Of a stretch of DNA of 64,000 bases, positions 1-41,634 are shown piece after piece. Each line of letters begins with the position of its first letter. The stretch's first letter is position 1. The translations under genes and the position numbers were made by a program. The notes below the pieces were generated by a model. That model had not been told where the DNA came from. It did no database searches and was given only the letters and a program-made list of their open reading frames with translations. This DNA is from a bacterium (GTDB lineage: Bacteria; Patescibacteriota; Patescibacteriia; UBA9934; GWF2-40-263). The stretch spans positions 613 to 64,612 of the forward strand of contig JAJYIV010000002.1 in assembly GCA_021789915.1 (NCBI GenBank), read 5' to 3'.

Positions 1-1502
1 GCACGGACGCCGCGCGCACGCAGGTGAAGGATCCGGCGAACTGCCCGGCCGGCTCGGCGGCGCAGACGAAGTACGTCTGCACGAACGGTCAGACGGTCGA
101 CGACCCGTCCGCGTGCGAGCACGTCTGCCGCGGCGGGTACGCGCTCGACGAATCGACCGGCGCGTGCGTGAAAGTCTGCCCCGAAGGGCAGACGCTGGAT
201 TACGCTGGCGACTGCGAACCGCTGCCGCCGAACGACTGCCATGCGGACGCGGACTGCAGCGCCGGCGAGCGCTGCAACGTGAATGGCCACTGCGTCGTCC
301 CGTGCCATCGGGACGCGGATTGTCATGATCCGTCGCTCTGGTGCAACGCGCCGACGATCGTCGGCGACGACACGATGGGAAGCTGCCAGCCCGCCCCGTC
401 GGAAACGACGGGGACGGGGAAGCTCACCGTCACGACGGACGGAACGTCGCCGAAGTCGTCCATCGTGCTCGGCGGCAGCACGAGCGTTCCCGCCGCCGTG
501 TACGCTTTGGAAGCGACGAACAAGAACGCGACGATCCGCGGTCTGACGCTGTTCAACTGCGTCGGCATGCAGCCGGAACCGAAAGACGACTGCAGCGGCG
601 CAAACGAAAGCCACGAGGACGACGCGGCCGTCGAGGCCGTGTATCTGCACTACTTCGGAGCGGACGGGAATTCCGTAACCAAAACGGGGTTCCTGCAGTT
701 CGGCAAGGTGACGTTCGTCGGGCTCGACATGCCGGCGAACGTCGACGTGCACACGCTGCTGACGGTGACGGTGGACGCCGGCCTTGTTTCGTCCGTGAAC
801 GGCGTGCCGTCCGGCACGAAGTTCCAGCTGAACCTCGTCGCGACGGACTTCGATGCCGTCGCAACGGACGACGGGACGCCGATCCAGGCGACGTTCACGG
901 CCGCCGGCGACGCACAAGCGGTCGCCAGTCCGATGACGTTGCGCAAGACCAAGCCGACCGTGACGCTCGCCTCGGGTTCCCCGAGCGGCGCCGGAGTGCC
1001 CGGGTTCTCCGAGGTGCTTCGGTACAACGTGTCGGCGGCGTCGACCGGCTTCGTCGGCCTCGACATGATCACGTTCAAGCTCACGTCGACGGACATGGCT
1101 GGCAGCGGCTGGAACACGGACGCCCGGCTTGAGGGCAAGTTCCAGTTGTACGACATGGCGGATCCGTCGGCAGCAATCGGCGCGGCCGTGTGGCTGCACA
1201 ACTCCACCGGTGCGGTGGCGGGGCCGAATGACGTTGTGACCTACGTCACGTTCGTCTTCGACCCGGGCGAAGTACAAGTCTCCGCCGGCATGACGTCCAC
1301 CTTCTCGCTGAAGATGGACACGACGGGCGCGAACTCCGCGGACAACGACATCATCCGCATCGACATCCCGGCCCAGAGCGAGCTCGACCAGCTCGCGACG
1401 CCGCAGACATCGATCCGGTGGGAAGATGATATCGAAGCGCAAAGCCTCGACGGGACGCTCGTCAACAATCTTCCGATGACGGGCGGAACGATCGTCTTCT
1501 AA
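1..1502 (+). CDS. Secreted/surface protein, 5'-partial: Cys-rich N-terminal region followed by beta-rich repeats
   Basis: The frame is open from base 3, upstream of the GTG at 24. There are many CxxxC-type Cys pairs followed by T/S/V-rich repeats. GC3 is high. No homolog recognised. Confidence 0.55.
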   Translation, partial: TDAARTQVKDPANCPAGSAAQTKYVCTNGQTVDDPSACEHVCRGGYALDESTGACVKVCPEGQTLDYAGDCEPLPPNDCHADADCSAGERCNVNGHCVVPCHRDADCHDPSLWCNAPTIVGDDTMGSCQPAPSETTGTGKLTVTTDGTSPKSSIVLGGSTSVPAAVYALEATNKNATIRGLTLFNCVGMQPEPKDDCSGANESHEDDAAVEAVYLHYFGADGNSVTKTGFLQFGKVTFVGLDMPANVDVHTLLTVTVDAGLVSSVNGVPSGTKFQLNLVATDFDAVATDDGTPIQATFTAAGDAQAVASPMTLRKTKPTVTLASGSPSGAGVPGFSEVLRYNVSAASTGFVGLDMITFKLTSTDMAGSGWNTDARLEGKFQLYDMADPSAAIGAAVWLHNSTGAVAGPNDVVTYVTFVFDPGEVQVSAGMTSTFSLKMDTTGANSADNDIIRIDIPAQSELDQLATPQTSIRWEDDIEAQSLDGTLVNNLPMTGGTIVF

Positions 1503-2117: not shown

Positions 2118-3944
2118 ATGTCCACCCAGACCCTCGTCCATCAAGACCCCGTCGTCTGCTCCATCGACCCGATCTCGACCATTGACGAGTATATCCACCA
2201 GGCCGACTGGCGGGTCAACGCGAACGCCAACCAGGGGTATTCGCTGGGCGGCATGATCCTGAACACCGTCGGCAAGGTGGTGGCGAATTACTGGCTTAAC
2301 AAGATTTACACCAAGGACATACGCGACGCGCATGTCCAGGGGGATTTTTACATCCACGATTTGGACGTGTTCGCCGGCTACTGCGCGGGGTGGAGCCTGC
2401 GCCAGCTGCTGGAGGAGGGCTTCAACGGCGTGCCGGGCAAGGTGGAATCGCTGCCGCCCAAGCACTTGGAGACGGCCGTGGCGCAGATGGTGAACTTCTT
2501 CGGCACGCTGCAGAACGAATGGGCGGGCGCCCAGGCGTTCTCCTCGTTCGACACGTACCTGGCGCCCTTCGTGAAGAAAGACCAGATGACCTACGAGGGC
2601 GTGAAGCAGTGCATCCAGCAATTCGTCTTCAACCTCAACGTCCCGTCGCGCTGGGGCACGCAGACGCCGTTCACCAACATCACGCTGGACTGGGTGTGCC
2701 CGGAGGACATGCGCGAGCGCCATCCGCTGGTCGGCGGCGAAGAGCAGCCGTTCACGTACGGCGATTGCCAAAAGGAGATGGACGCCATCAACAAGGCCTT
2801 CATCGAAGTCATGATCGCAGGCGACGCCAAGGGCCGCATCTTCACCTTCCCCATCCCGACCTACAACATCACGCGCGATTTCGACTGGGAAAACCCGAAT
2901 GTCCAGGGCCTGTTTGAAATGACGGCCAAATACGGCACGCCGTACTTCCAGAACTTCATCAATTCCCCGCTCAATCCGAGCGATGTGCGCAGCATGTGCT
3001 GCCGCCTGCAGCTCGACCTGCGCCAGCTGCGGCAGCGCGGCGGCGGCCTCTTCGGCTCGGCGGAGATGACGGGCTCCGTCGGCGTCGTCACCATCAACAT
3101 GGCGCGCCTGGGCCACGTTTCCAAGTCGAAAGAGGAGTTCTTCACGCGGCTGGACCGGCTGATGAAGCTGGCGAAAGAATCGCTGGAGCTCAAGCGCGAG
3201 ACGGTGGAGGACAATGTCCGACGCGGCCTGCTGCCGTTCACGCGCCGCTACCTGCCGTCGCTGCACAATCATTTTTCGACGATCGGCTTGAACGGCGTAA
3301 ACGAGGCGTGCCGGAATTTCTTCGGCGGCGACACGGACATCGCTTCGCCGGAAGGCAAGCAGTTCGCCGCGGACATCCTGGACTTCATGCGCAAGCGCTT
3401 GGCCGATTTCCAGGAAGAGACGGGGCACTTCTACAATCTCGAGGCCACGCCGGCGGAGGGCACGACGTACCGCTTCGCCAAGGAGGACCAGAAGCGCTTC
3501 CCCGACATCATCCAGGCCGGCACGACGGAGAATCCGTACTACACCAATTCGACGCACCTGCCCGTGACGCACACGGACAATCCGCTGGAAGCGCTGGACC
3601 ACCAGGACAGCCTGCAGACGATGTACACCGGCGGCACCGTGCTGCACCTGTTCCTCGGCGAACGCGTGCAGGATTGGAAGACGTGCCGCGCATTCGTGAA
3701 GAGCGTCGCCTACGGCTACCGCCTGCCGTATTTCACGATCACGCCGACGTTCAGCGTCTGTCCGTCGCACGGCTACCAATCCGGCGAACACCAGTGCTGC
3801 CCCACCTGCGGAGCCACCTGCGAAATCTGGTCGCGCATCGTCGGCTATTTCCGCCCTGTCGACCAGTGGAACCGCGGCAAGAAAGGCGAGTATGCCGAAC
3901 GCAAGGAATACGCGGTGCCGAACGCGTGCGAGACCTGCGTATGA
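2118..3944 (+). CDS. nrdD: Anaerobic ribonucleoside-triphosphate reductase (class III)
   Basis: 608 aa. C-terminal Zn-Cys cluster CPSHG..CCPTCG and glycyl-radical motif SRIVGYFRPV. nrdG follows directly. Confidence 0.95.
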   Translation: MSTQTLVHQDPVVCSIDPISTIDEYIHQADWRVNANANQGYSLGGMILNTVGKVVANYWLNKIYTKDIRDAHVQGDFYIHDLDVFAGYCAGWSLRQLLEEGFNGVPGKVESLPPKHLETAVAQMVNFFGTLQNEWAGAQAFSSFDTYLAPFVKKDQMTYEGVKQCIQQFVFNLNVPSRWGTQTPFTNITLDWVCPEDMRERHPLVGGEEQPFTYGDCQKEMDAINKAFIEVMIAGDAKGRIFTFPIPTYNITRDFDWENPNVQGLFEMTAKYGTPYFQNFINSPLNPSDVRSMCCRLQLDLRQLRQRGGGLFGSAEMTGSVGVVTINMARLGHVSKSKEEFFTRLDRLMKLAKESLELKRETVEDNVRRGLLPFTRRYLPSLHNHFSTIGLNGVNEACRNFFGGDTDIASPEGKQFAADILDFMRKRLADFQEETGHFYNLEATPAEGTTYRFAKEDQKRFPDIIQAGTTENPYYTNSTHLPVTHTDNPLEALDHQDSLQTMYTGGTVLHLFLGERVQDWKTCRAFVKSVAYGYRLPYFTITPTFSVCPSHGYQSGEHQCCPTCGATCEIWSRIVGYFRPVDQWNRGKKGEYAERKEYAVPNACETCV

Positions 3945-6385: not shown

Positions 6386-6413
6386 AAAATCCCCGACTTG
6401 GTCGGGGATTTTT
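6386..6413 (+). terminator. Terminator after tRNA-Gly
   Basis: AAAAATCCCCGAC-TTG-GTCGGGGATTTTT. Confidence 0.8.
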
Positions 6414-6510
6414 GCTTGTAAACGGGATGGGGGGCGCAAAAAACGCCGCCTGTTCCAAGAGGGGAACGGGCGGCAGCGTCAGTCGGCGGAGGGCGGCGGC
6501 CGCAGAAACG

Positions 6511-7686
6511 CTATGGTTCGCCGCGCGGGCGCAACAGCCACAGGACGGCGGCGACAGCCGCGAGCAGCGCGCCGCAAACCGTCCATGTCAATCGGATCGT
6601 GTCCGGCCCGTCGAGAAAGCGGCGGTCGGCAAGCCACAAGACAAGCGGCACGACGGTGAAACCGGCTTTCGCGGCGAATGAATGAAGCGATCCGGCGGTG
6701 GCGCGGTAGGCGCTTTCCACGCGACGGTGGATGAAGCGGTCCGTAAGCGGTTGGAAGGATCCGCGCGGCAGCTCGTGCAGCGCGAGCAGCGCCAGGAAGC
6801 CGACGCGGCCGCCGGAGAGCGGCAAGGCCAGCATTGCCAGCCCTGCGACGCCCATCGATACCGCCGTCGCGGCCGCGTCGTGCATGCCGGCGTCGGCCAA
6901 CCGCGGCATCAACAGGCCGCCGATGGAAGAGGCGAGGCACATTCCCGCAAAGACCAGGCCCAGGCGCGCGCGGCCGAACAGCCGTTCGGCATACGGCGCC
7001 CAAAAATAATTGATCCCGGCCACGAGGCCAAACGCGAACAGGCAGGCGGCGATCCATCGCAGCGCGCGCTGCGCGCGCAGGGCGCCGATCGCGCGTGCGA
7101 ACGCCTCCGTGCATGGCAGGCGATGCGCCGGATCGCCACGTCCGCGCATGCGCGTGCGCACGAACGCGACGAGTACGGGCGCGCACAAGAGTTCGGGAAC
7201 CCAGATCGCCCGTAGATGCCATGCGCCCAGCCAGCCGCCAAACGCGCCACCGGCCATCATGGCCAGGCCGCGCGCCGCGGACGCGCGGCCAAGAACGCCG
7301 CCGATATTTTCTCCATGGCCTTCGGCATGCAGCGTATCTACGAGCCATGCCTGCAGCGCGCCCGACTCGAACGCGAGACCGGCGCCTAGGACGATCTCCG
7401 CCGTCAGCGCCGAACCGAGCCCGCGCGCCAGCAGGTACGCGAGCGCGCCGGCGAACCGGATGACAGCACCCACGGCTAGCGTTCGCGCGCGCCCGAAACG
7501 ATCCGCCGCGAGACTCGTCGGAACGTCCATGGCAATCACGGCCGCACTGAAGAAACCGTTGATGAGCGCCACCTGGCCCAAGGTCAGGCCGATGGATCGC
7601 AGGAACGGCACGTAGTCCGCCATGGACATGGCAATGCCGAACGTGCTCAAGAATGCGAACGTCACGTACGTGCGCGCAGCGCGCAT
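6511..7686 (-). CDS. MFS transporter
   Basis: 391 aa with ~12 hydrophobic segments. DRFGRAR loop motif between TM2 and TM3. Confidence 0.7.
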   Translation of the reverse strand: MRAARTYVTFAFLSTFGIAMSMADYVPFLRSIGLTLGQVALINGFFSAAVIAMDVPTSLAADRFGRARTLAVGAVIRFAGALAYLLARGLGSALTAEIVLGAGLAFESGALQAWLVDTLHAEGHGENIGGVLGRASAARGLAMMAGGAFGGWLGAWHLRAIWVPELLCAPVLVAFVRTRMRGRGDPAHRLPCTEAFARAIGALRAQRALRWIAACLFAFGLVAGINYFWAPYAERLFGRARLGLVFAGMCLASSIGGLLMPRLADAGMHDAAATAVSMGVAGLAMLALPLSGGRVGFLALLALHELPRGSFQPLTDRFIHRRVESAYRATAGSLHSFAAKAGFTVVPLVLWLADRRFLDGPDTIRLTWTVCGALLAAVAAVLWLLRPRGEP

Positions 7687-7965: not shown

Positions 7966-8040
7966 GGGTCAGTAGCTCAGTGGTAGAGCCAGGGCCTTTT
8001 AAGCCCGCGGTCGTGGGTTCGATCCCCACCTGACCCACCA
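7966..8040 (+). tRNA. tRNA-Lys (anticodon TTT)
   Basis: GGGTCAG..CTGACCC acceptor, D-arm GCTCAGTGGTAGAGC, anticodon loop CTTTTAA, T-loop TTCGATC, CCA encoded. Confidence 0.92.
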
Positions 8041-8041
8041 G

Positions 8042-8165
8042 AAAACCGCCTAAAGCAGCGATCTATCGGCTCAGGCCTCGCGTGCTCGCTCACCGTACAT
8101 ATCAGTACGGCTCGCTGCGCCCGCTTCGGCCTTCACCGATATCTCATCTGCTTTAGGCGGTTTTT
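8042..8165. repeat. ~124-nt imperfect long hairpin directly 3' of tRNA-Lys
   Basis: Outer arms AAAACCGCCTAAAGCAG / CTGCTTTAGGCGGTTTT are perfect. Inner arms are imperfect around GTACATATCAGTAC. Confidence 0.8.
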
Positions 8166-8402
8166 AAGATGGGATCGAACCGGAAGCCGGAGAATGGTCG
8201 AGTCTTGCAACGGTCTCAGTGCAGAAGCTTGACGGAATCCTCATTCCTGGTATCTTTCGTCCTTGCTCTTTTTATGTTTTCAACGTTTGATTGAGCCATG
8301 AGGCAAGCGTTTTTCCGATCTTTTCGAAGGCCGGCAAGCCGCTTGTCTCATGGAAATGAGTCAGCCGCACCGGGAGTCCCCCGACTGCGAAACAAAAGGA
8401 GA

Positions 8403-9401: not shown

Positions 9402-9439
9402 CTTCGGCGGGGATCGGAGAGTGTTGTAAATCTCCTTTT

Positions 9440-9553
9440 CTCGTCATTGCGAGGAGCTGGTCCCAGTCGTGGCGACGAAGCAATCCTGCAGTTTCCTTCG
9501 AGAACGGAAGGATTGCTTCGCTCCGGCCTCCGGCTTTCGCTCGCAATGACGAG
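9440..9553. repeat. Nested palindromic element (GTCATTGCGAG type)
   Basis: Perfect 14-bp terminal inverted repeat CTCGTCATTGCGAG / CTCGCAATGACGAG, plus an inner inverted repeat CGAAGCAATCC / GGATTGCTTCG. Confidence 0.85.
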
Positions 9554-9659
9554 TTTTGCAACGGTCTCTGATCGAACGCTTGACGCGGCGCTTGACGCTC
9601 CCTTCCCTCCCGTTCAACGTCCTTTATAATGAAGGGATACTCAATCATCCTTTCATCCT

Positions 9660-13609: not shown

Positions 13610-13722
13610 GAGACCCCTGAAAAACCGATGGGTGTTCGTTGTCCGCCGGAGGCGGATCCGGCTCTGCCGGAAATGGACTGCGGAACCCGCGAGACGAACA
13701 GGCGCGATTTTGCAGAGGTCTC
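13610..13722. ncRNA. Candidate structured RNA or MITE-like nested-hairpin element, copy X
   Basis: It fills the whole gap between two minus-strand genes. Closing stem GAGACCCCTG/CAGAGGTCTC. Homologous to 24253-24411 with compensatory changes. Confidence 0.35.
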
Positions 13723-22484: not shown

Positions 22485-22652
22485 GACATCTGCGTGTTCG
22501 CCGGTCTTCCCGCCTTCTGTACATCCGAGAAGGACGGCATGGTCGTCACCCTCCCCTACCCGTTAGCGAACGGTCGGGAGAATTCTGTCAGCTTCCGACT
22601 CCGCGGGAAGACAACGGTCCTCGCCGCGCCGCACATCGTCTACGTCCACTGA
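22485..22652 (+). pseudogene. 3' fragment of a paralog of the 24824..25207 gene
   Basis: DICVFAGLPAFCTSEKDG..APHIVYVH aligns with KACVFGGLPAICETSKRG..APHIIYVP. No N-terminal part or start is present. Confidence 0.45.
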
Positions 22653-22706
22653 CGCACGCGCGTCCGCGCGGTTCGTGAGCCCGACGCTCACGGCCGCCGC
22701 GGGCGC
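22626..22706 (+). repeat. 81-bp direct repeat, copy A
   Basis: 78/81 identical to 25181-25261. Covers the last 8 codons, the stop and hairpins. Confidence 0.9.
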
Positions 22707-22749
22707 GATCTTTTTTGTAAACCAAACCCCGCCAGGTTTCTTTTTTGCC

Positions 22750-24144: not shown

Positions 24145-24153
24145 CCGTTCTCG

Positions 24154-24180
24154 ACGCCTCTCCGCGAGGCGTTTTTCTTT
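24154..24180 (+). terminator. Rho-independent terminator
   Basis: ACGCCTC-TCCGC-GAGGCGT followed by TTTTCTTTT. Confidence 0.7.
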
Positions 24181-24252
24181 TCGGGTTCGAAAAAGCTCCA
24201 ACGGGATCGCCACCGCGGCGGGTATCGCTTTCTTTGGAGCTAAAGAAAGATT

Positions 24253-24411
24253 GAGACCTCTGAAAAACTGATGGATTTTCGTTGTCAGCCAAAGGCTGAT
24301 CAGCCTCTGGCTGAAATGGGCTGCCGAGCCCCGCGAACCCTACTGAAACGTAGGGAGAGCGGGGTCGGCGGGCGCCCATGAAACGAAAAGACGCCGTTTT
24401 GCAGAGGTCTC
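24253..24411. ncRNA. Candidate structured RNA or MITE-like nested-hairpin element, copy Y
   Basis: Perfect closing stem GAGACCTCTG/CAGAGGTCTC. Same hairpin order as copy X, with an extra ~45-nt insertion. Confidence 0.35.
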
Positions 24412-24420
24412 GATTCTTTG

Positions 24421-24452
24421 CAAACCAAACCCCGCCTGGCCTGCAGGCGGGG
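24421..24452 (-). terminator. Terminator of the tRNA-like RNA
   Basis: On the minus strand: CCCCGCCTGCAGGCCAGGCGGGG followed by TTTGGTTTG. Confidence 0.65.
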
Positions 24453-24469
24453 CGGTTGGTCCCGGGTCG

Positions 24470-24545
24470 TGGTGGACCTGATGGGAGTCGAACCCACATC
24501 TTATGGTGCTAACTCAGGCGAGGTTACCGTTTCCTCCACAGGCCC
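24470..24545 (-). ncRNA. tRNA-like RNA (tRNA-Ala-like, degenerate anticodon stem)
   Basis: GGGCCTG-TG-GAGG-AAACGGTAA-CCTC..GTGGG-TTCGACT-CCCAT-CAGGTCC-ACCA. G3:U70 is present. The anticodon arm CCTGA/GTTAGCA/CCATA does not pair. Confidence 0.5.
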
Positions 24546-24823: not shown

Positions 24824-25207
24824 GTGATCCACAGAATCGTGATTGGAACAGTCGTCGCCGTCGGTGTTCTCTACCTCGCAAAGCCCATCGTCGGGTACTT
24901 CCACGAACAGGACGTGAAGGTACGCGCCGAGACCGACGTCGTGTGCGCGCACGTGACCCCGGCCAACTGGGGCGGCGAGGACAGCGCAACCTGCCGTAAG
25001 CTCGTGGCCAAGTTCATCAACATCGACCTCAAGCCGAAGGCCTGCGTCTTCGGCGGACTCCCGGCCATTTGCGAGACGTCGAAGAGGGGCACCGATGTCG
25101 CCGTGTTCCTCAAACGAAAAGACGGGCCGCTCCAGTACAGCCTGCTGCCCATCATGACCAAGGAACAGCTGGCGAACTCGGCGCCGCACATCATCTACGT
25201 CCCCTGA
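24824..25207 (+). CDS. Small membrane-anchored or secreted protein (127 aa)
   Basis: GTG start 7 nt after AAGGAG. N-terminal TM segment IVIGTVVAVGVLYL. Four Cys residues. Confidence 0.6.
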   Translation: MIHRIVIGTVVAVGVLYLAKPIVGYFHEQDVKVRAETDVVCAHVTPANWGGEDSATCRKLVAKFINIDLKPKACVFGGLPAICETSKRGTDVAVFLKRKDGPLQYSLLPIMTKEQLANSAPHIIYVP

Positions 25208-25261
25208 CGCACGCGCGTCCGCGCGGTTCGTGAGCCCAACGCTCACGGCCGCCGCGGGCGC
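25181..25261 (+). repeat. 81-bp direct repeat, copy B
   Basis: 78/81 identical to 22626-22706. Confidence 0.9.
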
Positions 25262-25604
25262 TTCTTTATTTTGAATCGAGAGATCCCTTCGGCGCCATGC
25301 TCCGTCCGCCGTATCATTCAGTCCCGCGGCACCATTGCCCCGCGGACGGAACGGGCCCGGCACAAGCGAGCCGTTCAGAGCCGCATCGGCCCGGCTCGCG
25401 ATGACGGAGACCGTCCGGCCAAGCGGGGCCTGGTGCCAAGATCTTTCTTTCTCCGGTTTCTTGGGATCGGCCAAGAAACCGGACCGCCGGAGGCTTCCGG
25501 CTTAAGAGGGTCTCGTGATCCCTCGCCCCGCCTGCATGCAGGCGGGGTCGGGACGACACAAGAAGGATGGCGCGCGTCGCCGGAGGCCTCCGGCGAAAAA
25601 AGAT

Positions 25605-37398: not shown

Positions 37399-37703
37399 AG
37401 AGCCTGTCCAGCATCTTTCTTCCAGGGACATTCGGATGACGTTTTGTGCGAAACATGTGATGGCTGACGAAGCGTAGCCAACGCTACGGTGAGGAGGCCA
37501 GCGCATGTTGCAGCCAAAACGGCGCCAAATGGAGCCGGGAGAGGAGATGTTGAACAGGCTCTTACGGACGCGCAAGACCGAAGGCTTGCCCTATGCGCGC
37601 CGATGCGCCGGCCCGCGAAGCTGCCATGGGCCGTACGGGATCGACCCGCCGCCCTTCTCTTCTCTTCCGCCGCCTCTTCCGGACCGGCGGTTTTCAGATA
37701 ACG

Positions 37704-38857: not shown

Positions 38858-38932
38858 AGAAAGATGGAAACGGCCCGAAACGGGCGTATGCCATATGATA
38901 CCCGTCCCGCCGCCAAAACGTTACTGAGACCT

Positions 38933-40470: not shown

Positions 40471-41595
40471 TCAGGAGACGAGGGGACGCGCGATCGCGGC
40501 GGCGAGCGCTTCCATCCCCTGCCCCGTCGCCGCGGACACCGGCGCCACGGCCGCGAAGGCCCCCGCGTCGAACGCCGGGCCAAGGCGTCGCCGCCAATCG
40601 GCGCCGGCGGCGTCGATCTTGTTCACCGCGAGCACGCGCGGCGTTTCCGCGGCGCCCAAGCGCTTCAGGATCTCGTCCACCACGCGCAGATGGTCCGCCG
40701 CATGCGCGTCGGCGGCATCCACGACCTGCACGAGCACGTCGGCGTCCGCCGCCTCCGAGAGCGTCGATGCGAACGCGTTCAAGAGCTCGGGCGGCAGATT
40801 TTGGATGAAGCCGATCGTGTCGGAGACGAGCACCTGGCGCGGCGGCTCGTTCTCTTTCCTTGCGACGTACAGCGAGCCAACGCGCGTGTCGAGCGTGGCG
40901 AAGAGCTCGTCGGCCGCATACTCGCGCCGGCGCGTGAGCCGGTTCAGCAGCGACGTCTTGCCGGCGTTCGTGTAGCCGACGAGCGCCGCCGTGGGCAGGC
41001 CCTGCCGCCGACGCCGTTCCTGGCGCGCGCGACGCATCGTCTGATACCGCGCGAGCTTCTCCCCGACCGCTTCGGCGCGCTCGCGCAGGTGCCGGCGCAT
41101 GATCTCCGTGTTCGTCTCGCCCTTGCCGCGCGTACCGGTGCCGCCGCCCTGGCGCGACAATTCCAGGCCCATGCCGTAGATGCGCGGGCCCATGTGCCGG
41201 ATGCCGGCCAACTCGATCTCCAGCCGCGCCTCCGTCGTGCGCGCGTGCTTGGCGAAGATCTTCAAGATGAGATCGAGGCGGTCCCACACCTGGAGGCCGG
41301 CCGGGCGCAGCGCTTCCGAGAGAAGATAGACTTGCCGCGGCTTGAGCCGGTCGTTGATGACCACGAGCGCCGCCCCGAGCCGCTTCCCTTCCTCGGCCAG
41401 CTGCTCGATCTTTCCCGTACCGAGGAATGTCGCCGGATGCGGCGCCGCGCGGCGCTGATGCGTCTTCACGACGACGATGCCGCCGTACGTGCGCACGAGT
41501 TCTTCCAATTCCTGCAGCCGATCCAAACTCTCCGCCTTCGTGAGCCGCGGCGGGATCAGATCGACGAGAATGGTTTTGAGGAGACGGTCGGCCAT
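40471..41595 (-). CDS. hflX: GTPase HflX
   Basis: HflX N-domain followed by G1 GYTNAGKTSL and G3 DTIGF. Confidence 0.9.
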   Translation of the reverse strand: MADRLLKTILVDLIPPRLTKAESLDRLQELEELVRTYGGIVVVKTHQRRAAPHPATFLGTGKIEQLAEEGKRLGAALVVINDRLKPRQVYLLSEALRPAGLQVWDRLDLILKIFAKHARTTEARLEIELAGIRHMGPRIYGMGLELSRQGGGTGTRGKGETNTEIMRRHLRERAEAVGEKLARYQTMRRARQERRRRQGLPTAALVGYTNAGKTSLLNRLTRRREYAADELFATLDTRVGSLYVARKENEPPRQVLVSDTIGFIQNLPPELLNAFASTLSEAADADVLVQVVDAADAHAADHLRVVDEILKRLGAAETPRVLAVNKIDAAGADWRRRLGPAFDAGAFAAVAPVSAATGQGMEALAAAIARPLVS

Positions 41596-41634
41596 GCGGA
41601 GACAGCGTTTCAAAAAGATTGACGGGCGTCAAAC

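Follow-up and report, generated by a model that had tools for sequence, protein, structure and literature searches.

The DNA analysed here, called the window below, is a stretch of 64,000 nucleotides (nt) from contig JAJYIV010000002.1 of a patescibacterial genome assembly (GCA_021789915.1), and our subject is element Y, a non-coding nested hairpin of 159 nt with the exact span 24253-24411. Y lies between a gene for a 266-amino acid (aa) ORFan protein and a transfer RNA (tRNA)-like gene on the opposite strand, with a terminator-like hairpin on either side (Table 1). An earlier note, made from the sequence alone, had described a perfect 10-bp closing stem on Y and had placed the element between two terminators and outside any open reading frame (ORF). 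The stem, GAGACCTCTG/CAGAGGTCTC, is present, both flanking terminators were called by a terminator scan, and the ORFs that overlap Y are mechanical only, without the third-position GC signal of coding sequence. As a single strand Y folds at -93.8 kcal/mol (z -11.65; none of 200 shuffles was equally good), and its reverse strand is nearly as stable, at -92.7 kcal/mol. The scan did not call Y, whose 3' arm is followed by GATTCTTTGC, as an intrinsic terminator, and no promoter-like site was called at the element. A search of Y against Rfam 15 gave nothing at the gathering threshold or at E-values up to 10, so a known RNA family was rejected at both strict and permissive thresholds; the canonical family member L008 gave only sub-threshold microRNA and small nucleolar RNA noise.

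The window holds a second, shorter copy, X. The earlier note had taken one branch of Y to be an addition that folds as a three-way junction, and on both counts the alignment and fold say otherwise. The branch in question (24324-24368) is a plain hairpin with internal loops and belongs to the canonical family core, which X has lost. The junction arises from a neighbouring 31-nt insert common to X and Y only, within which the differences between the two copies are compensatory changes.

Table 1. Positions of element Y, its parts, its relatives and its neighbours in the window
Feature	Position	Strand	Evidence
Y, very probably a complete MITE copy (miniature inverted-repeat transposable element); + strand 5'-GAGACCTCTGAAAAAC...	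24253..24411	+	Covariance model R1, 132.9 bits; nhmmer E 7e-35 against the family profile
Left terminal inverted repeat (TIR) of Y, GAGACCTCTGAAAAAC	24253..24268	+	Inverted repeat; near-invariant alignment columns 1-16; IS5-type terminus pattern
Right TIR of Y, GTTTTGCAGAGGTCTC	24396..24411	+	15 nt identical to the ends of IS5-family elements L032, L033, L068, L075, L113 and L115
Left copy of the 4-bp target-site duplication (TSD) of Y, GATT	24249..24252	.	Sequence; family TSD statistic
Right copy of the 4-bp TSD of Y, GATT	24412..24415	.	Sequence; family TSD statistic
Lineage-specific 31-nt insert with two mini-hairpins	24285..24315	+	Gap columns in 21 of 23 family members
Canonical family core hairpin, holding the 24324-24368 branch	24316..24379	+	Aligns with every 129-nt member
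X, older copy, 113 nt	13610..13722	+	Alignment to Y; covariance model
V, MITE-like nested hairpin of 155 nt, with IS5-type right terminus TTTTGCAACGGTCTC and degenerate left end	9414..9568	+	Terminus pattern; fold
Right-end remnant of a V-type element (…TTGCAACGGTCTC)	8166..8217	+	Terminus hit at 8205-8217
Z, nested hairpin of 123 nt with a core homologous to that of Y	8042..8164	-	R1, 70 bits, E 2.8e-13, full length
W, hairpin of 171 nt in an intergenic spacer	37400..37570	+	R1, 26.3 bits, E ~1e-3, at 37418-37542 (filters off); weak match
Terminator-like hairpin (24153-24173) and T-run of the 266-aa ORFan gene	24153..24181	+	Scan
Terminator-like hairpin downstream of the tRNA-like gene	24429..24453	-	Scan
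tRNA-like gene	24470..24545	-	Rfam tRNA, 39.8 bits

Copies, termini and target-site duplications

Relatives of Y were sought by scanning species-representative genomes with GAGACCNCTGAAAAACNGATGG and metagenomes with the 3' end CGCNNTTTTGCAGNGGTCTC. The first scan gave relatives of ~129 nt in three metagenome-assembled genomes (MAGs) of Candidatus Uhrbacteria, in one of Candidatus Parcubacteria, and in two third-party annotation (TPA) MAGs titled 'uncultured Gammaproteobacteria', a label taken from the record title only. The metagenome scan gave many more, and after removal of duplicates 23 non-redundant copies remained, many of them from Candidatus Uhrbacteria/Parcubacteria MAGs; the alignment and all family statistics below cover these 23. 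Members measure ~129 nt (range 113-159 nt), all of them fold at -50 to -94 kcal/mol, and the loci that they occupy, in metagenomes and in MAGs of Candidatus Uhrbacteria and Parcubacteria, are unrelated. Several genomes hold more than one copy: X and Y share the window, four contigs of the MAG CAZPPQ01 carry the element, and at least three copies lie in the Parcubacteria contig L009. The previously undescribed family is thus spread through bacteria of the candidate phyla radiation (CPR). Two scans of IMG/VR found no family member, and carriage by phage was accordingly rejected. On contig L009, three full copies and one partial tandem copy (472-599, 3132-3257, 6402-6465 and 6473-6600) fall within 6.2 kb and form a local cluster of insertions.

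The covariance-model check that the earlier note had proposed was run, and model R1 does find relatives. Copy X, which that note had also reported, aligns with Y across both ends and in the same orientation, with 46 nt of the core deleted. It is located between a gene for a 131-aa protein and mraY, and its last two bases fall within the upstream TGA stop codon.

The TIRs of Y are 16 nt each, differ by one mismatch and have the form GAGACCTCTG[A/C]AAAAC. Identical 4-mers abut both ends in 10 of the 23 copies, as compared with a mean of 0.56 for shuffled partners, and none of 20000 shuffles reached 10. The duplicated tetranucleotides are GATT (Y), TTCA, TATC (twice), AAGA, AATA, AAGT, ACAA, TATT and CTAA, with no conserved target tetranucleotide among them, and the number of matches fell to 0-2 when either boundary was moved by 1-3 nt. 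A 4-bp target duplication is typical of the IS5 group as described in ISfinder.

The 3'-end pattern of the family matches the exact termini of six elements of 1.15-1.18 kb (those listed for the right TIR in Table 1), each of which carries an inverted copy of the motif at its opposite end; the shared termini amount to 12-15 nt. Each of the six encodes a protein of ~320 aa with DUF772 and DDE_Tnp_1 domains and 43% identity to plasmid genes annotated 'IS5 family transposase'; these full-length examples come from high-GC contigs and are not demonstrably from the same organisms as the MITE copies. The same termini also bound short elements with unrelated interiors (119-121, 140, 172 and 219-220 nt), many of them with 4-5-bp TSDs, and many MITE families with common termini are the pattern expected from one transposase family mobilising them. 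Published IS5-family TIRs (Table 2 of PMC4596501) include those of ISNme1 (GAGACCTTTGCAAAA/TTTTGCAAAGGTCTC), ISPg1 (GAGACCATTGCA), MITE464 (TGCAACGGTCTC) and ISPg4; the right end of Y, GAGACCTCTGCAAAA, differs from the ISNme1 TIR GAGACCTTTGCAAAA by one base.

An empty site was found for X. Only 4 nt (L120) or 12 nt (L121/L122) separate the 131-aa gene from mraY in relatives with 76% or 53% identity in the 131-aa protein, compared with 118 nt in the window, where X fills the interval. As for Y, two metagenome assemblies made independently (ENA ERZ27233565 and Logan SRR13170411) contain three contigs of the same organism that end inside the element: L001, L002 and L118 break off there, at 77 nt and 30 nt from its left end and 55 nt from its right end. 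Such breaks are typical behaviour of a repeat, and they imply either further near-identical copies or population heterogeneity.

Pairing, strand asymmetry and the shared core

In the family alignment, 96% of cells at paired positions are standard pairs and 20 of 48 pairs are changed on both sides; none of 500 shuffles gave a comparable covariation count, and sliding the partners by 1-3 columns likewise left it far below. Outer helix 1 has 11 of its 26 pairs invariant and 5 with compensatory changes. In its outermost 15 pairs (columns 1-16, the TIR) departures are absent or confined to at most 4 of 23 copies, a sign of constraint on sequence, as expected for a transposase site. In inner helices 3-5, 15 of 21 pairs show compensatory changes, which indicates a constraint on structure.

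The 5'-GAGACCTCTGAAAAAC strand folds more stably than its complement in 22 of the 23 copies, by a mean of 12.9 kcal/mol (Wilcoxon P = 7e-7), with X as the single exception; Y is fully Watson-Crick. G·U cells number 58 against 8 A·C cells (20 pairs versus 7 pairs), and the better-folding strand has purine-rich loops. Its GC skew is +0.19, as against values near 0 in the flanks, and a local mutational skew was therefore rejected as the cause of the asymmetry. A C-to-T bias linked to transcription or replication was rejected too, since it would give an asymmetry opposite to that observed. Conservation of the inner stems by compensatory changes, together with the better fold of one strand, suggests that some single-strand property, of RNA or of single-stranded DNA (ssDNA), is under selection. 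The strand considered for an RNA-level role was 5'-GAGACCUCUGAAAAAC.

The genomic context of the copies was counted from ORF-based gene calls and tRNA predictions, crude calls that make the following counts suggestive only: the right end (…GCAGAGGTCTC) faces the 3' end of an opposite-strand gene in ~15 reliable cases versus 2, the left end faces gene starts and gene ends alike, and between co-directional genes one orientation prevails by ~8:1 (two-sided binomial ~0.04), in which the mRNA bears the weaker-folding strand. Copies lie in the same orientation next to the 3' ends of the tRNA-like gene (Y), of a tRNA-Leu (L031) and of a tRNA-Arg (L056), and wherever an element follows directly downstream of a tRNA, its orientation matches that of Y relative to the tRNA-like gene. 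The link to tRNA-like genes raised in the earlier note found support, in that relatives adjoin tRNA 3' ends more often than might be expected.

Scanning model R1 over the window gave two extra hits, Z and W. The start of Z lies 1 nt beyond the 3' end of a tRNA-Lys gene (7966-8040). The element folds at -80.8 kcal/mol as against -62.8 kcal/mol on the other strand, and it agrees with the family consensus in the internal-loop motifs GAUG…/…CGC and at 27 of 29 nt of the tip region. A closing stem of 17 bp (AAAACCGCCTAAAGCAG…), entirely different from that of Y, is A/T-tailed, and Z has no TSD; a T-run stands at the end on both strands, and Z looks like a bidirectional terminator. W folds at -88.9 kcal/mol versus -72.3 kcal/mol on its other strand. 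Further TIR-less relatives that share the core flank tRNA-Ile in contig L044 and tRNA-Met in contig L006 (L044a and L006a). The core therefore occurs both within IS5-type MITEs and within TIR-less hairpins that adjoin tRNA and gene 3' ends. On these two contigs, long-hairpin relatives lie on both sides of the tRNA, within 1-84 nt of it, at 791-912(+) and 1075-1200(-) of L044 and at 87-207(+) and 298-458(-) of L006.

It is conceivable, if on balance unlikely, that the ~65-nt core (tip GCGAG-CCGTAC-TGAAAT-GTACGG-TGAGC, GA-rich internal loops) is a functional single-strand module of Patescibacteria that was captured by the MITE or is ancestral to it. Such a module could be a signal for processing, protection or termination of RNA 3' ends, or an ssDNA or RNA cofactor of transposition; if it exists, a host-relevant RNA structure would have been spread by transposition.

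Probable transposition and its alternatives

Very probably, in our view, a non-autonomous IS5-type transposon, a MITE, inserted here recently to give Y. The insertion would be recent because the TIRs are intact, the TSD is perfect and the stems are all Watson-Crick. Measured against the definition of bacterial MITEs (PMC3184786, PMC4596501), Y is small and without a transposase ORF, has TIRs and a TSD, forms a long stem-loop and belongs to a set of dispersed copies, with an orthologous empty site seen for its sister copy X; its TIRs match those of full-length IS5-family insertion sequences. The suggestion in the earlier note of a structured RNA-like family is borne out in that the family is conserved, covarying and multi-copy, whereas it appears to be mobile DNA and not a fixed RNA gene, and it matches no known RNA family.

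In the mechanism we propose, an IS5-family DDE transposase acting in trans would bind and cleave at the 16-nt ends of Y, and repair of a 4-bp staggered cut in the target would leave GATT on both sides. The landing site would have been a neutral spacer between two convergent terminators. The ends would pair with each other around a palindromic core to give the nested hairpin, the sequence of the outer stem being conserved as a protein-binding site. The strand asymmetry and the orientation bias point to further selection at the single-strand level. Most simply, insertions that place the very stable strand into an operon mRNA would be purged, and copies inside operons would have to avoid too stable a hairpin; alternatively, the folded strand may help the element to persist or to move. 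The transposase is presumed, in its identity as in its present activity.

Several observations weigh against this interpretation. A clean TSD is missing from 13 of the 23 copies, X included. No empty site was located for Y; the 266-aa neighbour is an ORFan, for which reason the site could not be found, contigs break inside Y, and a hunt with the 186-aa and 127-aa versions of the ORF beside Y found no record. The site is predicted to read …GCTAAAGAAAGATTCTTTGCAAACC…. By tblastn, an IS5-family transposase is absent from the 64-kb window and from the CPR loci (~8 kb each), the only hits being the six non-CPR insertion sequence (IS) copies, and in the hunt for an autonomous partner the other pattern hits (L087, L108, L060 and others) were solo ends or chance matches in coding DNA. 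The core is shared by Z, W, L044a and L006a under entirely different closing stems and with no TSD, which a simple picture in which the TIR defines the family does not predict. Lastly, cut-and-paste transposition does not by itself account for the strand asymmetry or for the orientation bias.

Much of this would suit a functional structured RNA, whether a cis-acting 3'-end, terminator or stability element or a small RNA, in which the likeness to transposon ends is secondary: the near-complete pairing with compensatory double changes that no shuffle approached, the better fold of one strand, the excess of G·U over A·C cells, the purine-rich loops with their GC skew, the core kept in Z, W, L044a and L006a under closing stems that have covaried fully, and the recurrent position at gene and tRNA 3' ends. 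We nevertheless judge this reading improbable, because the strand that folds better lies antisense to the flanking operon in most copies, Y stands between two terminators with no promoter-like site, the family shows no consistent gene association and no Rfam match, and the TSDs, the IS5-type termini and the empty site represent insertion events. Strand-asymmetric hairpin stability, together with an orientation relative to genes that runs one way at ~8 co-directional sites and the other way at 1, might also point to a repetitive extragenic palindrome (REP) or palindrome-associated transposable element (PATE) moved as ssDNA by a tyrosine HUH transposase (RAYT or IS200/IS605 TnpA). REP and PATE families have no target duplication and no TIRs, insert next to a fixed tetra- or pentanucleotide, and are associated with a Y1 transposase gene. 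Y, by contrast, has TIRs, varied 4-bp TSDs without a fixed target tetranucleotide flank 10 of the 23 copies, the termini equal those of IS5-family DDE elements, and none of the copies examined has a Y1 transposase gene nearby, which makes such an origin scarcely credible.

The repeats around Y allow yet another reading, in which Y is the boundary or attachment structure of a repeat-bounded segment of 1.7-2.5 kb and part of an integrative islet. Between the copies of a 26-nt repeat at 22711-22736 and 24414-24439, Y comes last on the right, and the right copy of that repeat begins exactly at the right-hand GATT of Y; the whole unit is flanked by direct repeats of ~91 nt with 96% identity (22620-22716 and 25177-25270), and the 266-aa neighbour is an ORFan. 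However, more than 20 unrelated loci carry the same element but no repeats of this kind, the segment holds no integrase, and Y has its own TSD, and we hold an islet boundary to be very unlikely. TSDs, TIRs and a large number of unrelated insertion sites are the reasons why all the alternatives to a MITE insertion were rated low. Two resemblances were also dismissed. A hammerhead-like reading of CUGAUG…GAAA left A9 and A14 unmet by eye and had no Rfam support, and an integron attC reading was set aside by consideration alone, the likeness of AAAAC…GTTTT being superficial, with no integrase and with TSDs present.

Among described systems, the Neisseria ATR elements (proposed parent ISNme1) and the P. 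gingivalis BrickBuilt/MITE464 elements have GAGACC…GGTCTC ends and TIRs nearly identical to those of Y (PMC4596501). Like the Y family, they are short and multi-copy, contain no ORF and have short TSDs and TIRs that match full-length IS5-family elements. The Y family differs from them in its host lineage, in its unrelated core, and in the much tighter conservation of this ~129-nt core, with compensatory changes and strand asymmetry; its parent IS was not found in the same genomes. MITEs of the ERIC and Correia type (PMC3184786) resemble Y as imperfect palindromes of ~100-160 nt that are intergenic, often at gene 3' ends, and have TIRs, TSDs and long stem-loops, but they show no sequence similarity to the Y family, and their TSDs are of the TA type, in contrast to varied 4-mers. 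Orientation-dependent effects on mRNA have been reported for ERIC, and co-transcription is common for such MITEs (PMC3184786); effects of this kind would fit the orientation bias of the Y family. IS5-family insertion sequences (DUF772 and DDE_Tnp_1, ~1.2 kb) have the same terminal 12-15 nt as Y, whereas Y measures 159 nt and lacks a transposase gene. MITEs are already well known, IS5-derived ones with GAGACC…GGTCTC ends among them (PMC3184786, PMC4596501), and the Y family is a further family within this well-known kind, without an Rfam entry; full-text literature searches gave no description of MITEs in CPR/Patescibacteria.

Taken as mobile DNA, the nested-hairpin repeats of the window warn against annotating such structures as RNA genes, and the MITE nature of Y would explain why metagenome assemblies break there. 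A CPR MITE family that is active or recently active, and whose transposase is missing, should be useful for the study of genome plasticity and horizontal exchange in uncultured lineages. Whether bacterial MITE cores are selected at the level of RNA or ssDNA is a question that this family makes tractable, through its strand-specific covariation, its orientation bias and the TIR-less relatives next to tRNA genes.

Other terminus-bearing elements and the surroundings of Y

The earlier note had proposed GGTCTC as a terminal motif shared by several local repeats and had listed four sites, of which that at 9563-9568 was placed correctly and the other three were slightly off; the corrected positions are 8212-8217, 25509-25514 and 38926-38931. 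The hexamer as such was rejected as a signal, since it is not enriched in the window (25 found versus 35.9 expected). The extended terminus GAGACCNYTGCAA has 6 hits versus 0.57 expected, a number that none of 100 shuffles reached, and these are both ends of X, both ends of Y, 9556-9568 and 8205-8217. The idea of a shared terminus thus survives for the last two places, while the sites at 25509-25514 and 38926-38931 are chance occurrences that do not extend to the terminus motif. One of the two hits ends element V, whose right TIR TTTTGCAACGGTCTC equals the TIR of P. gingivalis MITE464 (Table 2 of PMC4596501). The other belongs to a remnant of ~50 nt of a V-type element, which adjoins Z, so that insertions form a nest downstream of tRNA-Lys.

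Outside the window, further MITE families with related ends (GGGATCTCTGCAAAAG; TSD ACAA) were seen on contigs L006 and L011. The IS5-type insertion sequences and MITEs of the high-GC contigs (L074, L039, L109, L032, L033, L075, L113 and L115) sit inside short palindromes, for example tccc…ggga, which suggests that REP-like hairpins are their targets.

The tRNA-like gene and the repeat-bounded segment that the earlier note had reported beside Y were both found. The gene has an Ala-type acceptor with G3·U70, its CCA is encoded, and the D and T arms are good, but the anticodon stem is disrupted, with 3 of 5 pairs non-canonical; a decayed tRNA-Ala is one possibility, a tRNA-like RNA another. It also matches the ends of the transfer-messenger RNA (tmRNA) model, at 29.8 bits and below threshold. 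By eye, a TTGACA-type -35 box stands upstream of it, where the scan called no promoter-like site. Elsewhere in the window, ARAGORN called a 94-nt tRNA-Ala(ggc) at 40523-40616(-), inside the ORF at 40471-41613(-) and without an Rfam tRNA hit, which is probably a false positive.

The 266-aa gene has no homologue beyond itself. The ~91-nt repeat consists of the 3' end of a 155-aa ORF and a hairpin, and its left copy lies in a remnant ORF of 37 aa. The two copies bound a unit of 2.55 kb that contains a nucleoside deoxyribosyltransferase-like gene, the 266-aa ORFan, Y, the tRNA-like gene and the 155-aa ORF. Together, the repeats around Y suggest a history of duplication or insertion linked to the MITE site.

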